Positions 13,372-20,723 of a DNA stretch of 64,000 nucleotides are shown here, piece by piece (the stretch's first letter is position 1; each line of letters opens with the position of its first letter). A model generated the notes under the pieces. It did not search any database, had not been told where the DNA came from, and saw nothing but the letters and a program-made list of their open reading frames with translations. Made by a program: the position numbers and the translations under genes. The stretch is from a bacterium (GTDB lineage Bacteria; Patescibacteriota; Minisyncoccia; UBA6257; GWB1-50-10), in the NCBI GenBank assembly GCA_021813265.1, contig JAKALF010000001.1:2548-66547 (forward strand), in the 5' to 3' direction.

Positions 13372-14892
13372 CTATTTCGCGTATTCCACCGCTTTTACCT
13401 CTCGTATCACGACTACCTTGATTTCTCCGGGATATTGGACGTCGGATTGAATCTTTCCCGCTATCTGTTTCGCGATTTCAAAAGCTCCAAAGTCGTCAAT
13501 CTTCTCGGGAACGACAAAAACCCTAACTTCCCTTCCCGCGGAAACGGCGTACGCTTGCTTTACCCCTTCAAAACTCTTAGTAACGTTTTCAATGTCTTCC
13601 AAGCGTTTGATATATTTTTCAAGCGTGTCTCTTCGGGCTCCAGGACGAGCCGCGGAAATAGCATCGGCCGCCGCGACAACATACGCTTCGGGAATGGAAT
13701 ACGGATATTCGTCATGGTGAGATTCCATGGCTTTGATAACCTGATCATCAATGCCGTATTTTTTAAGAAGCTTTCTCCCTAATTCAACATGGGTTCCTTC
13801 GACTTCATGGTCAATAGCTTTCCCAATATCATGGAGAAGCGCTCCTTTTTTCGTGACTAAAACATTTAAATGGAGTTCGGAAGCGATCATGCCGGCGATG
13901 TGCGTCATTTCGATGGAGTGCTGGAGCACGTTTTGGCCATAGCTTGTGCGATAGTTGAGACGCCCTAAAATCTGGGTGATTTCTTTAGGAAGATCCAGGA
14001 TACCGACTTCATAGGCCGCGTCTTCTCCGACTTTCCTCATATGAGCTTCAAGCTCGTTGCGGGTTTGCTCGACAATCTCTTCAATCTTTGCCGGTTGAAT
14101 TCTTCCGTCCTTGATGAGTTTTTCTAAAGAAAGTTTCGCGAGTTCTCTTCGAAGCGGATCAAAGGAGGAAATAAGGATGCTTTCGGGGGTTTCGTCAACG
14201 ATGACTTCAACGCCCGTCGCGCGTTCAAACGCCCTCACGTTTCTTCCTTCTCTTCCGATAATCTTGCCTTTGATGTCCTCGTTCGAAAGCTGAACGACGC
14301 TTGTCGTCACGTCCGCGATCTTCTCCCGTGCGTACCGTTGAATGGCGGTTGTAATAATTTCAGAGGCTTTCCGTTCAATTTCACCTTCCTTTTCGCGCTC
14401 AAGACGAGCGAGAAGTTTCGCGAGTTCTTCGCGGTTGGCGTCCTCAAATTGTTTGAATATTTTTTTACGAGCCTCCTCTTCCGTAACGCCGGAGATTTTT
14501 TCAAGTTCGGATAGGGCTTTTTCTTTGAGATTTTGAATTTCTTTCTCGGACTCCTTAATCCGCTCGGCCTCGCTTTTCAGTTTTGTCGATTCCTCGGAAA
14601 GCTTGGATTTTTCAACATCCAGCGCGTCTTCCTTTTTAAGAAGACGCTCTTCAAGAAAACGGAGTTCCCGTTTTCGTTCCCTCTCTTCTTTCTGAAGATC
14701 GACAAGGATGGACGCCGCCTTGTCTTTGGCGCTTACGACGATCTCTTTAGCCTCGGCTCTGGCCTTTTCGAGTTCCTCTTTGATTGTTTGTTCGGACGAT
14801 TTTCGGGAACGTTGGGCGATGAGAAGTCTTGCTCCATACCCTATGGCTAGAGCAAGAACAGCCAACCCCCAAAACAACGGGTTTGTAATCAT
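13372..14892 (-). CDS. rny: ribonuclease Y
   Basis: N-terminal TM helix, coiled coil, KH domain (GREGRNVRAFE) and HD domain (HSIEMTHIAG...LLHDIGK). Confidence 0.85.
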   Translation of the reverse strand: MITNPLFWGLAVLALAIGYGARLLIAQRSRKSSEQTIKEELEKARAEAKEIVVSAKDKAASILVDLQKEERERKRELRFLEERLLKKEDALDVEKSKLSEESTKLKSEAERIKESEKEIQNLKEKALSELEKISGVTEEEARKKIFKQFEDANREELAKLLARLEREKEGEIERKASEIITTAIQRYAREKIADVTTSVVQLSNEDIKGKIIGREGRNVRAFERATGVEVIVDETPESILISSFDPLRRELAKLSLEKLIKDGRIQPAKIEEIVEQTRNELEAHMRKVGEDAAYEVGILDLPKEITQILGRLNYRTSYGQNVLQHSIEMTHIAGMIASELHLNVLVTKKGALLHDIGKAIDHEVEGTHVELGRKLLKKYGIDDQVIKAMESHHDEYPYSIPEAYVVAAADAISAARPGARRDTLEKYIKRLEDIENVTKSFEGVKQAYAVSAGREVRVFVVPEKIDDFGAFEIAKQIAGKIQSDVQYPGEIKVVVIREVKAVEYAK

Positions 14893-14992
14893 GATTATAT
14901 GCTATTGATTTATATATCGACATGTATATGGTTTTAGTATACCACTTGAAGGAACGAGAAAGCAACGATTGTGATACAATATACAAGAAAAT

Positions 14993-15904
14993 ATGCCTAA
15001 TGAAAGAAAAACAAGGGTTCTGCTTGTGATTTTAGACGGTTGGGGAATAGGAAACGATGATGAGAGCAATCCCATCCATTTCGCGAATCCTCAAACCCTT
15101 GGGTATATACAAAAAACCTTTCCCTCGGGAATGCTCCAAGCCTCGGGAGTCGCGATCGGTCTTTCATGGGAAGAATCGAGTTCAAGCGAGTTGGGCCATC
15201 TTGTGATGGGATCGGGACGCGCCCTCCACGCGTACGCGAAAGAAATTTTCTCAAAAACTTCTCCTATCTCAGAAACCCTTGGGGAGATTCTTTCTCAACA
15301 TAACAAAGTTCAAATGCGTATAGCGGAAGAAGCGAGGTATGAACATATTACGTACTTCTTTAATGGATTAAGAAACGATCCCTTTCCTAATGAGTATCGG
15401 GTACGGATCCCGTCGGAAAAAACCCTTCACCCCGAAACGCATCCCGAAATGATGGCCTCTGCCGTAACGGATCGGGTTATAATAAGTCTCAAGGAAAAGG
15501 CGTTTGATTTTATCGCCATAACCTACGCGAATCCCGATGTTATCGCCTTTACGGGAAACTATGAGGCGACCATAAAGACGGTTCAAACGATTGACGGAGA
15601 GTTAAAAAGACTAATGGATACCGTCTTAGAAGAAAGCATCCTTATGATTATAACCTCAAGCCATGGAAACGCCGAGGCGGTTTTAAATCTCAAAACGGGA
15701 GAGACGGAAAAGACTAACGATCCCAATCCCGTTCCCCTCTATCTTGTGGGAAATGAATATATCCTAAAAAACCCCCACCCCGACATCTATCACCTTCCTC
15801 CGCTCGGAATCATATCCGACATAGCTCCGACTATTTTAGATCTCATGGGAATCAAAAAACCCAAAAGCATGACGGGAGAGAGTTTGTTATCTCAGTTGAA
15901 ATAG
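14993..15904 (+). CDS. iPGM-like alkaline-phosphatase-superfamily protein lacking the central phosphotransferase domain
   Basis: N-terminus VLLVILDGWGIG...SELGHLVMGSGR and C-terminus ITSSHGNAE...DIAPTILDLMG match the two halves of the GpmI phosphatase domain. The intervening ~230 aa are absent. Confidence 0.55.
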   Translation: MPNERKTRVLLVILDGWGIGNDDESNPIHFANPQTLGYIQKTFPSGMLQASGVAIGLSWEESSSSELGHLVMGSGRALHAYAKEIFSKTSPISETLGEILSQHNKVQMRIAEEARYEHITYFFNGLRNDPFPNEYRVRIPSEKTLHPETHPEMMASAVTDRVIISLKEKAFDFIAITYANPDVIAFTGNYEATIKTVQTIDGELKRLMDTVLEESILMIITSSHGNAEAVLNLKTGETEKTNDPNPVPLYLVGNEYILKNPHPDIYHLPPLGIISDIAPTILDLMGIKKPKSMTGESLLSQLK

Positions 15905-16846
15905 CTTGTCTTCCAATTTTCTTGTGTTTCCGTGACACAAAAGGCCTCTGTATGAATTGAGTGTTTCTTGCGTCGCGCGGGTTTTAACACGATTGAACAT
16001 TCTCCGCTTTGTCGCGGTTCGCAGTACCCGATGATCGGGGAAATGGACCCAACCCAGGAAATCAACGCCGGAGCCGAGGGGTTTTACAAAAACCTTATGG
16101 CTGTGTAGATGAAGATTGAGACTTTCTTTTAAGAATAAATCTATTTGGGGAATACGTGACCACGCGCGTTTTTTGTCTCCAGAAAAAATCACGAAATCAT
16201 CCGCGTAACAGATATAGTACGGTTCTCTCAATGCGTGTTTTATAAACCTATCAAATCTATCCATATACACATTCGCGAAAAGCTGGCTCGTGAGATTTCC
16301 AAGCGGCAACCCCTTCCCCGGAGTTGCGTGAAAACTCTCAATAATGCTTCTGCAAAGCCAAAGCGTTTTTGTATCAACTCGCTTTTCTAATATTGAAAGA
16401 AGGATTTCGTGATCAATGCTCGCGAAGAACTTTTATATGTCGCATTTTAGTATCCAACACTGTTTTGTGTTGTTTTTGCTTACTCTGTACGCGAAGGCGC
16501 GGAAACGATCTAACGCCTTACGCATCCCCTTGTTGTTTCTGCACGAAAATGAATCGGAAATGAATTTCTTGTCGAAACAAGGATAAAGCACGCGATACAT
16601 TGCGTGATGCAGGAGACGGTCTCGAACGCGCGCTTTATGAATGTTTCTCGGTTTCGGATCGGAAATATTAAAAGCAACATAACCTCCGTGGCGGTAGGCG
16701 CGGTTTACAAGCTCGCGGTGGAGTGAGAAAACATGATCCATAAGGTGAAGCGAAAATTCCCGCACGTCCGGTTTGCCCCTCTTACCGTTCAGAAACTCCC
16801 GCCACGCTTCAAGTAGATTTTCAACGGAAATAATTTGTTCAAACAT
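15887..16846 (-). CDS. DGR-type reverse transcriptase interrupted by one in-frame TAA (16433-16435); possible pseudogene
   Basis: N-terminal part: RNIHKARVRDRLLHHA and ...KCDI*KFFASIDHEILL. C-terminal part: GNLTSQLFANVYMDRFD and YADDFVIF. The two ORFs are in the same frame, separated only by TAA at the motif-2 Arg/Lys position. Confidence 0.8.
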
Positions 16847-17260
16847 ACGTTATGGAATCAAATAAAACCTTTAACCCCCCCCCGACGGAATGACCTGCCG
16901 GTAATTCGGAAATTGATTGACGTTTACAAACTCTGGCATGAATTCGTACCGCACATTCCGAAGACCTCGCGATATACGTTGGGAGGGAAGATTGACTCAT
17001 TATTTTTGGACGTGATTGAATTGATATTTGCCGCGTCCTACGACACAATGTCCGAAAAAATCGCAAGACTAACTAACGCGAACGCAAAACTCGGAACACT
17101 CAAATTTTTTCTCCAGATCGGCTGGGAAATAAAGATGATGGATACGAAAAGATACATCGTTCTATCAGAAAAACTTGATGAAATTGGACGAATATTGGGA
17201 GGATGGAAACGCGGTATAGAAACAAAACTCCCCGCAGGAAAGCAAGGAGAACGGGGGTAA
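16835..17260 (+). CDS. avd: Avd-like four-helix-bundle protein (DGR accessory variability determinant)
   Basis: YKLWHEFVPHIPKTSRYTLGGK ... LDEIGRILGGWKR matches the Avd / 23S-IVS four-helix-bundle family. The start is uncertain (TTG at 16835) and overlaps the RT start on the opposite strand. Confidence 0.6.
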   Translation: MFKHTLWNQIKPLTPPRRNDLPVIRKLIDVYKLWHEFVPHIPKTSRYTLGGKIDSLFLDVIELIFAASYDTMSEKIARLTNANAKLGTLKFFLQIGWEIKMMDTKRYIVLSEKLDEIGRILGGWKRGIETKLPAGKQGERG

Positions 17261-17371
17261 GCTGCGAGAAAAAACGCGGCCGCCTTCGTTCCAGAAGACG
17301 TCACGAAGACCATACGCACCCAAGTACCACCCGCGATCGTCACCATCCCAGTACGCGTGCACGGCCACCAC
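17258..17371 (-). repeat. DGR variable-repeat-like copy B (orphan, abutting avd stop)
   Basis: 114-bp copy of 17710-17823. It differs at 22 positions, all in codon positions 1-2 of 13 codons. Confidence 0.7.
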
Positions 17372-17612
17372 GCTCAATATATGCGCGACGCGCCATCTAA
17401 ACCACCGCGTCTTGAACATTCTCGACGCTGTATCGTATGCCGAGGATAAAACCTCGAGAGCGCGTTGCACCAGCTGACCTTTTGTTTTTTAAGCGTTTTC
17501 TCGCGCTCCTCCGTAAAACATATCCGACGGAGTTCCCGCTTGAAAACCGCTTGAAACTTTCCCGCCGAAACCATAGCCGCGGCGAAAACGAAAATTTCAA
17601 AGTTTAGTATAC

Positions 17613-17659
17613 AAAAAAATCCCTCTTTCTCAAAGGATAAACATAAAAGAGAAAGAGGG
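17613..17659 (-). terminator. hairpin (11-bp stem ccctctttctc/gagaaagaggg) + T-run downstream of the DGR target gene
   Basis: Perfect inverted repeat with a T7 run on the minus strand, about 50 nt past the target stop. Confidence 0.5.
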
Positions 17660-17709
17660 AGAATGAAAAGGAAGAAGAGGGAAAAAGAAGAAAGGAAAAA
17701 AGGGGAAGG

Positions 17710-18414
17710 TCAGCTGCGAGAGAAAACGCGGTAGCCTTCGCGCCAGAAGGCACCATCAAGAACATACGCATCCAAGATCCACGCGCGATCGTCATCACCC
17801 CAGCGCGCGTCCACGGCCACCACGCGTCCATCTTCCAATTCAACATAGAAGATGGTGGCGTAGCCATTGACGAGTAGCTTGCCTTCCTCTCCTTCTGGTT
17901 GCTTCATGAGCAGATAGGAAAGGATTGAGGAGAATTCTAGGAGGGAGAAAGGCTTGGGATGTCCGAGTTCCTCGAGGATCTCGGAATCACGCATGTCCTT
18001 TGAAAGCTGAGTCGATTGGAGATTCCCTTGAAAGGCGGGGACAAGATTGGGGATTGCTTTTAGGATCCGATCCCTGAAACTATCCCAAATATATAACTTC
18101 ACGGGACCATTCTTGAAGAATGAGTCCCTTTGAAAGGGCTGGATGCTTATGGGGATCTGGTCCGTGATTAATTGTAGATGTTTCAGCGCGAACTTGGACG
18201 CACCAACGATAAGATCCGCTATTTTTTCGGCCATCTGCGGAATCAGATCTTTTTTATCCTTTAATGCGTCAAAAATCTGATCTTCAGAAACGTTCCTTTT
18301 CTTCAATTCTTTAAGTAATGAAGAAAAGAAATCGACTATAAACATTAAAGCGGCGAAGATTGATGATTTTTTCTGTGTCATTTGACACCTCCATATGTTG
18401 TGATGTTCCATCAT
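17710..18414 (-). CDS. DGR target protein with a C-terminal variable region
   Basis: 234 aa. The last ~37 codons (17713-17823) are one copy of the diversified repeat. Confidence 0.65.
   Translation of the reverse strand: MMEHHNIWRCQMTQKKSSIFAALMFIVDFFSSLLKELKKRNVSEDQIFDALKDKKDLIPQMAEKIADLIVGASKFALKHLQLITDQIPISIQPFQRDSFFKNGPVKLYIWDSFRDRILKAIPNLVPAFQGNLQSTQLSKDMRDSEILEELGHPKPFSLLEFSSILSYLLMKQPEGEEGKLLVNGYATIFYVELEDGRVVAVDARWGDDDRAWILDAYVLDGAFWREGYRVFSRS
17713..17823 (-). repeat. DGR variable repeat (VR) at the 3' end of the target gene
   Basis: See repeat B. It is followed by a roughly 70-nt homopurine(+)/CT-rich(-) tract. Confidence 0.7.
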
Positions 18415-18533
18415 TTCCTACTACCTTTCGGAAACATCGGAAACATCAGGTTTAAAAATCTAGTATAATGATATAACATATCAGATAAAAAGTCAAGTGC
18501 TATTTCTCCTGTAACATTATATACTTAACATCA

Positions 18534-18899
18534 ATGAAACTTATCGGAAAATTCATTATCCATGTAATCGCGAACATGATTGCGCTTCTTGCCGCGAATT
18601 ATTTCGTTTCGGGATTTTCTTTTTCGGGAGATTTCTATTCTCTCGTGGTCGTAAGCGCGTTATTTGCTCTGATACAGATGGTGATAAAGCCGATTTTGAG
18701 ACTTTTCTCGGGACCCTTAATCGTCTTAACCTTTGGACTCTTCTCAATCGTCGTAAACGCCATCTTGCTCTATATCCTTGACATATTAAGTTCTGACCTT
18801 ACAATCCAAGGATATGTTCCGCTTCTTCTGGGGACGCTTATCGTAAGCATAGCGCATATGGTTATAAGCGGAGCGGGAAGGAAGGTATATAAAGAATAA
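18534..18899 (+). CDS. DUF360 / phage-holin-4-like small membrane protein
   Basis: 121 aa, four TM helices with G-rich helix faces. Confidence 0.4.
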   Translation: MKLIGKFIIHVIANMIALLAANYFVSGFSFSGDFYSLVVVSALFALIQMVIKPILRLFSGPLIVLTFGLFSIVVNAILLYILDILSSDLTIQGYVPLLLGTLIVSIAHMVISGAGRKVYKE

Positions 18900-18901
18900 T
18901 C

Positions 18902-19114
18902 ATGCTTATTATCACAGAAATCATCGTGGCCATCGTTCTTATGATTCTCATTCTTCTTCAGGAACGATCGTCCGGCATGTCGGGTCTTTTTGGGGGAGGG
19001 GGAGCGGACGCCTCGTATCAGACTCGAAGAGGCTTAGAAAAGATAATCTTCTGGTCAACAATCGCGCTCGCGGTTGTCTTCGCCGCCCTTGCCATCTTAA
19101 AACTCATCGTCTAA
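18902..19114 (+). CDS. secG: preprotein translocase subunit SecG
   Basis: 70 aa, two TM helices with the Gly-rich loop LQERSSGMSGLFGGGG. Confidence 0.7.
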   Translation: MLIITEIIVAIVLMILILLQERSSGMSGLFGGGGADASYQTRRGLEKIIFWSTIALAVVFAALAILKLIV

Positions 19115-19121
19115 CCATTCC

Positions 19122-20723
19122 ATGTCTATCGCCTCGCTTTTGAAAAACGCTATGTCGTCTAAAGAACGCGTAGCTTTTGGAATCGCCTCTACCGCCCTTA
19201 TCGTCTCGGCTATCGCGACGGGAGTATTTTCCGTAAAAGAAAACAGCTCCTATGTCCCCGTTCGGGGAGGATCCTTCAGTGAAGGGATAATAGGACAGCC
19301 TGTTATGGTAAACCCCATACTTTCCAAGAATCAGGCTGATAGGGATATCAGTTCGCTTGTGTATAGCCCTCTTTCAAAACTCGTCTCAAGCTCCGAGACG
19401 GATCCCGATCAAAGGGTATATACTGTAAAGCTCAAAGAAGGACTCCTTTGGGATGACGGAAAGCCCCTCACGAGCGACGATGTTATCTTTACCATAAAAA
19501 CGATTCAAAATCCCGACGCGCGTTCTCCCTTTGAAAAAAACTGGAGAGGGATATCGGTTGAACGATCCAGCGAACTCCAAGTGGTCTTCACTCTTCCGGT
19601 TCCCTATTCTTTTTTCTCCGAGATTCTTTATAAAACTCCCATTATTCCAAGGCATATCTTCTCGGCTATTCCCGTGGAAAACTACAGACTCTCTTTGTAC
19701 AGCTTGAAACCCGTGGGAAGCGGACCGTATAAGGTAAAGAAAATTGATCAGCGAAGAGATGGATTCATAACCGAATATCAGTTGGTTCCCAATCCAAACT
19801 ACGCGGGAGATCCTCCCTTTATCACCAATTTCTATTTCAAATTCTATGAAACGGAAAACGATCTTTTCAAAGACTTAAGACTCCGAGAAATAAACGGATT
19901 CGGAAGTCTCTCTCCTTTGGATAAGCGTTTTGAAAACGTCGGGAACGTCAAACTTGAGAAAATCCCCATGTCTCGATACTACGCGATATTCTTTAATCCC
20001 ATAAACAACCCTTCTCTCAAGAACAAAAGCGTGCGGAAGGCGCTTGATCTCGCGATTGATAAAAACGAGTTGGTAAAAATCCTGGGAGATGGAAACGCGT
20101 TTCCCATAAACAGTCCGCTTGTTCCTCTCTTAAAAGAAAAAAACACCTTTGAAAACAAATACAACCAAGAAACGGCGAGAAACCTTCTTGAAAAGGCTAA
20201 AGTGACAAACCTTTCCATCAATCTCATTGTTCCCAACACGGATACGTTCAAAGCGATAGGAGAATTCATTAAAAACGCGTGGACGGGAATCGGAATAACG
20301 GGTGTGACTATAACCCCCGTTGACCCCGACGCCATCTTTGATAACGCGATCAAAACAAGAACCTATGAAGCGATTCTTTTTGGAAACGCGCTTGAAAATC
20401 CCCTTGATTTCTTCCCCTTCTGGCATTCATCTCAGCGGCTTTCTCCCGGACTCAACCTCTCCTTCTATCAAAACATTGATGTTGATAAGCTCATAGAAAA
20501 AATACAGGAGACACGGGATGAAACGGAACGCGAAAATCTCGCAAACCAAGCCGCTTCTCTCATTGAAAACGACGTTCCCGCCGTATTCCTTTACACTGAA
20601 CCCTATTTCTACCTGCGCTCGGAAAAACTTCAAGGAATGAACACGAACTTGATTACCGCCCCAAGCGACAGATTTTTGAACGTTCAGAATTGGAGCGTCA
20701 TCATGGCGAGGGTTTTGAAATAA
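19122..20723 (+). CDS. ABC transporter substrate-binding protein, family 5 (peptide/nickel type), orphan
   Basis: 533 aa with an N-terminal anchor and SBP_bac_5-like architecture. No permease or ATPase genes are adjacent. Confidence 0.55.
   Translation: MSIASLLKNAMSSKERVAFGIASTALIVSAIATGVFSVKENSSYVPVRGGSFSEGIIGQPVMVNPILSKNQADRDISSLVYSPLSKLVSSSETDPDQRVYTVKLKEGLLWDDGKPLTSDDVIFTIKTIQNPDARSPFEKNWRGISVERSSELQVVFTLPVPYSFFSEILYKTPIIPRHIFSAIPVENYRLSLYSLKPVGSGPYKVKKIDQRRDGFITEYQLVPNPNYAGDPPFITNFYFKFYETENDLFKDLRLREINGFGSLSPLDKRFENVGNVKLEKIPMSRYYAIFFNPINNPSLKNKSVRKALDLAIDKNELVKILGDGNAFPINSPLVPLLKEKNTFENKYNQETARNLLEKAKVTNLSINLIVPNTDTFKAIGEFIKNAWTGIGITGVTITPVDPDAIFDNAIKTRTYEAILFGNALENPLDFFPFWHSSQRLSPGLNLSFYQNIDVDKLIEKIQETRDETERENLANQAASLIENDVPAVFLYTEPYFYLRSEKLQGMNTNLITAPSDRFLNVQNWSVIMARVLK

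Follow-up and report, generated by a model that had tools for sequence, protein, structure and literature searches.

The window, by which we mean the whole stretch of 64,000 nucleotides that was analysed, carries a target gene with its VR, a second repeat (copy A) at the position of a template repeat (TR), an Avd gene and an RT gene (Table 1). The same parts make up the cassettes of related loci. A scan of GTDB genomes gave the best 80 related RT loci, at 59-73% identity, and a cassette was identifiable in 65 of them, ordered as target gene with C-terminal VR, TR in the same orientation, a gap containing the antisense Avd gene, and RT gene. The TR-to-RT gap of these 65 relatives measures 386-631 nt, mostly 395-453 nt. 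The window's own genome is absent from the best 80 loci, probably since the stop codon in its RT gene splits the match into two weaker segments.

Table 1. Positions of the cassette features in the window
Feature	Position	Strand	Remarks
DGR-type RT pseudogene	15887..16846	-	319 sense codons, one internal TAA, terminal TAA
Nonsense codon TAA	16433..16435	-	LKCDI-stop-KFFASIDH, two residues past the first catalytic Asp of the RT
N-terminal RT fragment, 137 aa	16433..16846	-	Expected translated product; lacks most of motif A
Avd accessory gene	16835..17260	+	Antisense to and divergent from the RT gene
Repeat copy A, TR by position	17260..17373	-	Adenine-depleted, VR-like
Target gene, 234 aa	17710..18414	-	ORF with VR at the C-terminus
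VR	17712..17825	-	3' end of the target gene, ends at the target stop

Both this order and a TR about 400-450 nt upstream of the RT gene are known from the DGRs of CPR/Patescibacteria ('CPR set', Wu et al. 2018, PMC5758913; 'DGR clade 2', Roux et al., bioRxiv 10.1101/2020.04.01.020958), to which the window RT is 59-73% identical and which likewise possess Avd, the motif LGxxxSQ and a small uncharacterised protein with a VR at its C-terminus. This clade and its abundance have already been described (PMC5758913; 10.1101/2020.04.01.020958). Unlike these elements, the window has an RT gene interrupted by TAA and a TR-position repeat of deviating base composition (see below).

The Avd product matches the Pfam family bAvd with 64.7 bits (cut-off 40) over residues 25-127 and the NCBIfam family DivGenRetAVD with 77.4 bits, just under the cut-off of 80, over residues 21-125, and we regard the accessory gene of a DGR as present. 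Neither match starts before about residue 21-25 of the listed ORF, which probably puts the true start near 16895. In many loci (L009-L091), there is no ATG between the upstream stop and the conserved Avd N-terminus (PPP, followed by LPVIxKL), and Avd therefore probably starts at a non-ATG codon near 'LPVI'. The gene is antisense to the RT gene in 78 of 78 loci, the window counted. A tract of nine G residues (16875..16883, minus strand), 29 nt upstream of the RT ATG, provides Pro codons in the long Avd ORF, and a 'PPP' stretch is conserved at this position in relatives. Two Logan assemblies (L004 and L008) have a G10 tract instead. The extra G may stem from assembly noise, or the tract that separates the divergent Avd and RT genes may vary in length.

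The target protein, whose second-closest homolog is P0123, contains no Pfam or NCBIfam domain. Its VR is placed as in a DGR, at the 3' end of a protein-coding gene. The cassette is chromosomal and lies within no obvious mobile element. The RT ORF and a metalloenzyme-family gene (14993..15904, plus strand) converge and share their last 18 nt (15887-15904), and the cassette is thus tightly wedged among housekeeping genes, with RNase Y, HU and SecG nearby.

The interrupted RT gene

According to the sequence-only reading from which this analysis started, two RT ORFs (16846-16436 and 16432-15890) share one frame and are parted by a TAA, and translation of 16846..15887 in a single frame confirmed this. 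Positions 16444..16409 of the minus strand read tgc gac ata TAA aag ttc ttc gcg agc att gat cac, that is C D I stop K F F A S I D H, with the TAA as codon 138 of the RT. The ORF is therefore interrupted, although the catalytic YxDD is present as YADD. The stop had been assigned to RT motif 2, but its distance from the first catalytic Asp places it in motif A, which is domain 3 in the seven-domain numbering. The description of the lesion as a single nonsense codon within an otherwise intact DGR-type RT held up. The remaining ORF is open and homology is continuous over the stop. When the two parts are joined, the protein matches Pfam RVT_1 over residues 65-265, spanning the stop, with E=2.3e-21, and it aligns with 36 full-length homologs without any indel; their consensus at the stop site is LKCDIRKFFASIDH. 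The RT also keeps YADD and, as LGNLTSQ, the 'SQ' of motif 4. The latter corresponds to the pattern [I/L]GxxxSQ in RT domain 4, a motif regarded as typical of DGR RTs (PMC3521204).

The best NCBIfam match of the window RT is a group II intron RT/maturase family, and motif A is similar in these proteins (DIxxFFxSIDH). But the score for TIGR04416 is 124 bits against a cut-off of 300, and neither a group II intron RNA nor any other Rfam family was found in 14500-19500. We therefore ruled out a group II intron RT. In addition, the locus has Avd and TR/VR repeats, unlike a group II intron. NCBIfam holds no model specific for DGR RTs, hence it does not provide a classification of this RT.

Searching 5.8 billion proteins yielded at least 8000 homologs. 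The 120 homologs listed are all uninterrupted (316-393 aa), with a best identity of 72%, and those with a name belong to Patescibacteria/CPR MAGs. A basic residue had been expected at the stop site, and this is borne out by the 120 listed homologs, which have R in 70 cases, K in 47 and Q in 3. The homologous codon in 77 related genes is AGA (17), AAA (17), AAG (10), CGA (9), AGG (8), CGG (6), CGC (5), CGT (4) or CAA (1). Locus L016, for example, reads ATA-AAA-AAG where the window has ATA-TAA-AAG. A single substitution is therefore sufficient, as had been proposed: both AAA and CAA are one step away from TAA. The suggested comparison with orthologous RTs revealed a stop at this site in none of the 120 listed proteins and none of the 77 genes, and none of the 80 related RT loci that were scanned in frame contains an in-frame stop.

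Apart from the stop, the RT departs from the family at four columns that are at least 98% conserved (H109R, N196D, R213C and L228A), and R213C adjoins YADD. Other homologs have on average 0.71 departures at such columns, and four are reached by 1 of 120. With a conservation threshold of 90%, the RT shows eight departures compared to 4.08 ± 2.31, a number reached by 10 of 120, which is a modest excess. A second RT was not detected in the 64-kb window by tblastn.

Translation that ends after residue 137 stops ahead of most of motif A and of all motifs B-E, YADD included, and therefore yields no active polymerase. We also considered an RT that is made in two pieces. In the RT frame, no ATG, GTG or TTG follows the TAA before 16309, so that a C-terminal piece would be devoid of the FFASIDH segment, which rules out a two-piece split RT.

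Other genes of the window were included by a scan for pairs of open stretches, each of at least 90 codons, that share a frame and are parted by one stop; nine such stops were returned in 64 kb. Among the pairs examined, the RT is the sole one that aligns as two halves of one protein family; the check for in-frame TAA in other genes thus gave no second case in the window. Three other TAA codons separate long ORFs. One of these pairs, RNase J and GH1, clearly represents two different genes. The other two (ABC-F ATPase and an unknown; two unknowns) have at least one side without Pfam support, and neither displayed signs of a split gene. The rest of the nine comprise the stop of the target gene itself and stops among shorter or overlapping ORFs, outside this comparison. 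The split pattern of the RT exceeds chance expectation.

Reproducibility and reading of the stop codon

The exact 137-aa product that ends at the TAA has been called on 15 contigs. The eight that are listed come from eight accessions, namely three NCBI assemblies (GCA_027423395.1, GCA_021840345.1 and GCA_027423375.1), four Logan assemblies (SRR13241953, SRR17201078, SRR13300764 and SRR13299515), and one ENA assembly (ERZ27237541). The contigs with the truncated RT are 99.86-100% identical to the window, and the contig-naming styles differ between the three repositories, suggesting different assemblers. One contig (L001) has three differences to the window at 16640-16649 within the RT N-terminus, all at third codon positions, which must be synonymous because the RT product is unchanged. 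Another (L002) shows seven differences in 20297-20396, in an SBP_bac_5 gene. The distances between sites are multiples of three in either cluster. Both look like short recombination tracts from diverged relatives, and a paralogous RT copy is possibly the source of the cluster in the RT gene. The presence of such small SNP clusters in some contigs indicates that the contigs are not all one identical sequence.

All sampled contigs carry the TAA, and among assembled contigs an intact allele has not been recorded. The 5.8 billion proteins do not include a near-identical uninterrupted RT; the best match remains the one at 72%. An exact-pattern scan of JGI metagenome contigs for the RT site, with NNN at the stop, gave no matches and hence no extra strains. 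The sequence-only reading had mentioned a sequencing or assembly error as one explanation, in which case the true codon would be a sense codon and the RT intact. Such an error would involve a single base (from AAA or CAA), and the same caveat has been raised for nonsense-truncated DGR RTs (PMC3521204). But since the stop is common to slightly different strains, with SNPs elsewhere, and to three repositories, and since no allele above 72% identity exists in the protein collection, an error is excluded for practical purposes, and we consider it extremely improbable. Pseudogenisation, a second explanation offered by that reading, is supported. Its being fresh, in the sense of still polymorphic, is not, given a stop in every sampled contig. 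The comparison covers assembled contigs; a minority sense allele, or microdiversity of the VR, may occur within the population.

Readthrough had been the third explanation. Of 59 long, non-overlapping ORFs in the window, 37 terminate with TAA, and the tetranucleotide found at the RT site, TAAA, occurs most often among their stops (15 cases). The stop of RNase J is a TAA exactly at the final position of its Pfam C-terminal domain. There is no suppressor tRNA among the six tRNAs of the window. Reassignment of TAA is ruled out by this stop-codon usage, and readthrough has no support either, TAA being the commonest true terminator. It could still be imagined that termination is leaky by design, with few ribosomes passing the TAA and a deliberately low dose of full-length RT as the result. 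DGR activity needs little RT, the downstream ORF is fully open with intact catalytic motifs, and a TAA as the sole disabling lesion of the RT also fits a regulated leaky stop. However, the codon and its context are those of ordinary termination in the window, and the lack of a suppressor tRNA and of an Rfam match nearby provides no hint of recoding. Moreover, no relative has a stop at this site, hence there is no conservation that would mark a programmed signal. Finally, full-length RT would have to work with a TR that has lost its adenines and from which the VR was not copied (see below). We regard a programmed leaky stop as very improbable. With the RT being a pseudogene and recoding discounted, the gene should be annotated as a pseudogene and the cassette should not be counted as an active DGR.

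The repeat at the template position

With its end 410 nt upstream of the RT start and directly against the Avd stop, copy A sits where the 65 relatives have their TR. It forms a repeat pair of 118 nt with the VR, with 82% identity and 20-21 mismatches, while 94 non-variable positions are still identical between the two. Our own codon parsing of the repeat alignment placed 18 of 20 mismatches at codon positions 1-2, a bias that represents the AAY-codon signature of DGR mutagenesis. In a DGR, mismatches are expected almost only at adenines of the TR. Among the 65 relatives, the fraction of mismatches that carry A in the TR is never below 0.60 and has a median of 0.94. Of the 21 mismatch sites in the window, by contrast, 6 (29%) are A in copy A and 5 are A in the VR. 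The overall A content of copy A is 0.12, compared to medians of 0.25 for the TR and 0.11 for the VR of the relatives. The two repeats had been described as two VR copies. Judged by its composition and position, copy A is instead a former TR whose adenines were overwritten, next to a single VR.

Two consequences follow. Because the adenines of the TR are gone, even a repaired RT would have no proper template. Furthermore, 15 mismatches are at non-A bases of copy A, and the present VR can therefore not derive from the present copy A. We also considered that copy A originated as a chimera by VR/TR recombination (VR2/TR deletion), but this is unlikely, since non-A mismatches are found all along the repeat. 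No convincing hairpin that could account for target recognition or mis-targeting emerged when the DNA of the 3' flanks of VR and copy A was folded (VR, -2.9 kcal/mol; copy A, z = -0.41).

Alternatively, copy A could be the VR of a truncated second target, and the real TR, perhaps together with a working RT, would then reside elsewhere and act in trans. The VR-like composition of copy A would agree with this, as would its location within a 101-aa ORF in the VR reading frame. Several related MAGs carry two DGR cassettes, and a third VR variant exists in a sister genome (L092, see below). But copy A occupies the very place, 410 nt upstream of the RT gene and against the Avd stop, of the A-rich TR in 65 relatives, and non-A mismatches along the whole repeat do not indicate a VR/TR chimera. 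A third repeat copy or an A-rich TR was not found in the 64-kb window with three mismatches allowed. An intact TR, with A at the variable columns, should follow the pattern GCGTGGTGGCCGTGAACGCGAAC..., and an exact-pattern scan of JGI metagenome contigs for the core shared by VR and TR, with every variable column set to N, produced no matches and hence no intact TR. In addition, both copies are invariant across assemblies. A second VR served in trans is therefore an improbable explanation, and we return to copy A as a former TR.

Decay of the cassette and related loci

The VR is identical in the window, L001, L002 and L005, that is in all contigs spanning it, and copy A is likewise identical in every contig that spans copy A. 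Seven contigs encode one and the same target protein, whose 90% cluster consists of a single sequence. Ongoing diversification is thus not seen between assembled contigs. The system had been thought to have been active very recently, because the non-variable positions of the repeats are perfectly conserved. With VR and target protein identical in all spanning assemblies and a TR without adenines, this could not be supported, and the cassette in its present state is not compatible with very recent activity. The conserved positions do speak for a young decay on an evolutionary scale, but not for recent activity of the system. We read the decay as young in this sense because a single disabling mutation is present and the 94 non-variable positions of the repeats have stayed identical, yet it is found in every sampled contig and shows no fresh polymorphism.

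Taken together, the cassette is very probably a decaying DGR relic, in which a genuine nonsense mutation killed the RT, now an ordinary pseudogene, and in which the TR is devoid of its adenines. The loss of the TR adenines is a second, independent lesion, and the cassette is doubly dead. A second DGR with an intact RT and an A-rich TR might still exist beyond the 64-kb window and act on it in trans.

Two related loci were informative in this respect. In Candidatus Brennerbacteria (L019, JACPEK010000006.1), the TR-position repeat (2482-2599) has an A content of 0.08 and three mismatches to the VR (2045-2162), while the RT (345-aa ORF) and Avd (127 aa) are intact. An erased TR beside intact RT and Avd genes indicates that TR erasure can precede the loss of the RT, and L019 may show this decay at an earlier point. 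The second locus (L092, DAIBZO010000005.1, 3652-4395) is a target-gene homolog in the sister MAG GCA_027423415.1, which is apparently from the same assembly batch (consecutive accessions). It shares 65% protein identity with the target gene and 89% DNA identity over the 3' 531 nt. No TR, Avd or RT lies within about 4 kb downstream of it, where a Fic gene and an unrelated ORF follow; the sister MAG has either lost the cassette by deletion or carries it at another place in its genome. The VR of L092 is a third variant, which differs at the same variable columns as the window copies and additionally at sites where both window copies keep A (e.g., GACGAT vs GGCGCT). This pattern indicates that the three copies are independent A-mutagenised derivatives of one A-rich ancestral TR. 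Together, L019, the window and L092 look like stages of decay.

The same molecular outcome would result if the loss of the RT and of the TR adenines had been favoured by selection, freezing an advantageous variant of the target. A stop in all sampled contigs together with an invariant VR, two independent inactivating lesions in one cassette, and a sister lineage without a cassette downstream of the target gene would all agree with such a selected lock-in. However, drift or hitch-hiking is equally expected in a near-clonal population (at least 99.86% identity), and we consider selection to be a rather unlikely cause of the decay.

DGRs with RTs disrupted by nonsense mutations, frameshifts or IS elements have been documented, for example in Ruminococcus gnavus ATCC 29149 (Schillinger et al. 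2012, PMC3521204, Fig. 4). The nonsense mutation in the window RT is a further case of these known inactivated DGR RTs, with which it shares a premature stop in a recognisable RT and perfectly conserved non-variable repeat positions. In contrast to the window, where the TR is scrambled, the TR/VR pairs of the published cases are intact and differ by A-only mutations, from which recent inactivation was inferred (PMC3521204). The published cases also represent single genomes, whereas the stop described here is reproducible across many assemblies. Full-length RTs with non-A mutations in the VR were reported as well (PMC3521204, Fig. 4D), and these may overlap with loci that have an adenine-stripped TR. 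A TR-position repeat without adenines was not found in our limited full-text literature search.

How the TR could have lost its adenines is suggested by the DGR of Bordetella phage BPP-1. There, a 21-bp IMH segment, which differs between VR and TR, sets the direction of information transfer (PMC3240598). A TR that received mutagenised information would resemble copy A, being an independent A-mutagenised copy of the ancestral TR at the TR locus. In work by Doulatov from 2004, replacing IMH* by IMH is reported to turn the TR into a target. However, this loss of directionality was engineered and concerns a phage DGR, whereas the window represents a natural locus of a CPR clade for which IMH and IMH* are undefined. 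The TR of the window was probably overwritten first, either by mutagenised cDNA that homed into the TR rather than the VR, which would account for the pattern in a single step, or by VR-to-TR recombination. With an erased TR the RT would have become useless, and a nonsense mutation from AAA (Lys) or CAA (Gln) to TAA would then have drifted, or been selected, to fixation, leaving the VR of the target gene frozen. As a whole, this natural failure of a DGR, in which homing of mutagenised cDNA into the TR erased the adenines and disarmed the element, the RT nonsense mutation came later, and L019, the window and L092 are snapshots, is a tentative scenario to which we give somewhat less than an even chance. 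If it is true, self-targeting of the TR has a real evolutionary cost, would be visible in about 2 in 66 cassettes of the clade, and is what the directionality signals of DGRs exist to prevent.

Adenine-erased TRs at the canonical position provide direct evidence of natural DGR death and suggest that TR-to-VR directionality sometimes fails. This is relevant for estimates of DGR turnover in CPR bacteria as well as for engineered DGR mutagenesis systems. Automated DGR finders demand A-biased TR/VR pairs and would reject or mislabel both the window cassette and L019. As an alternative to self-targeting, the VR could have recombined into the TR, with the VR allele later being replaced in an exchange between strains. 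This route needs more steps; such recombination tracts are visible among the contigs.
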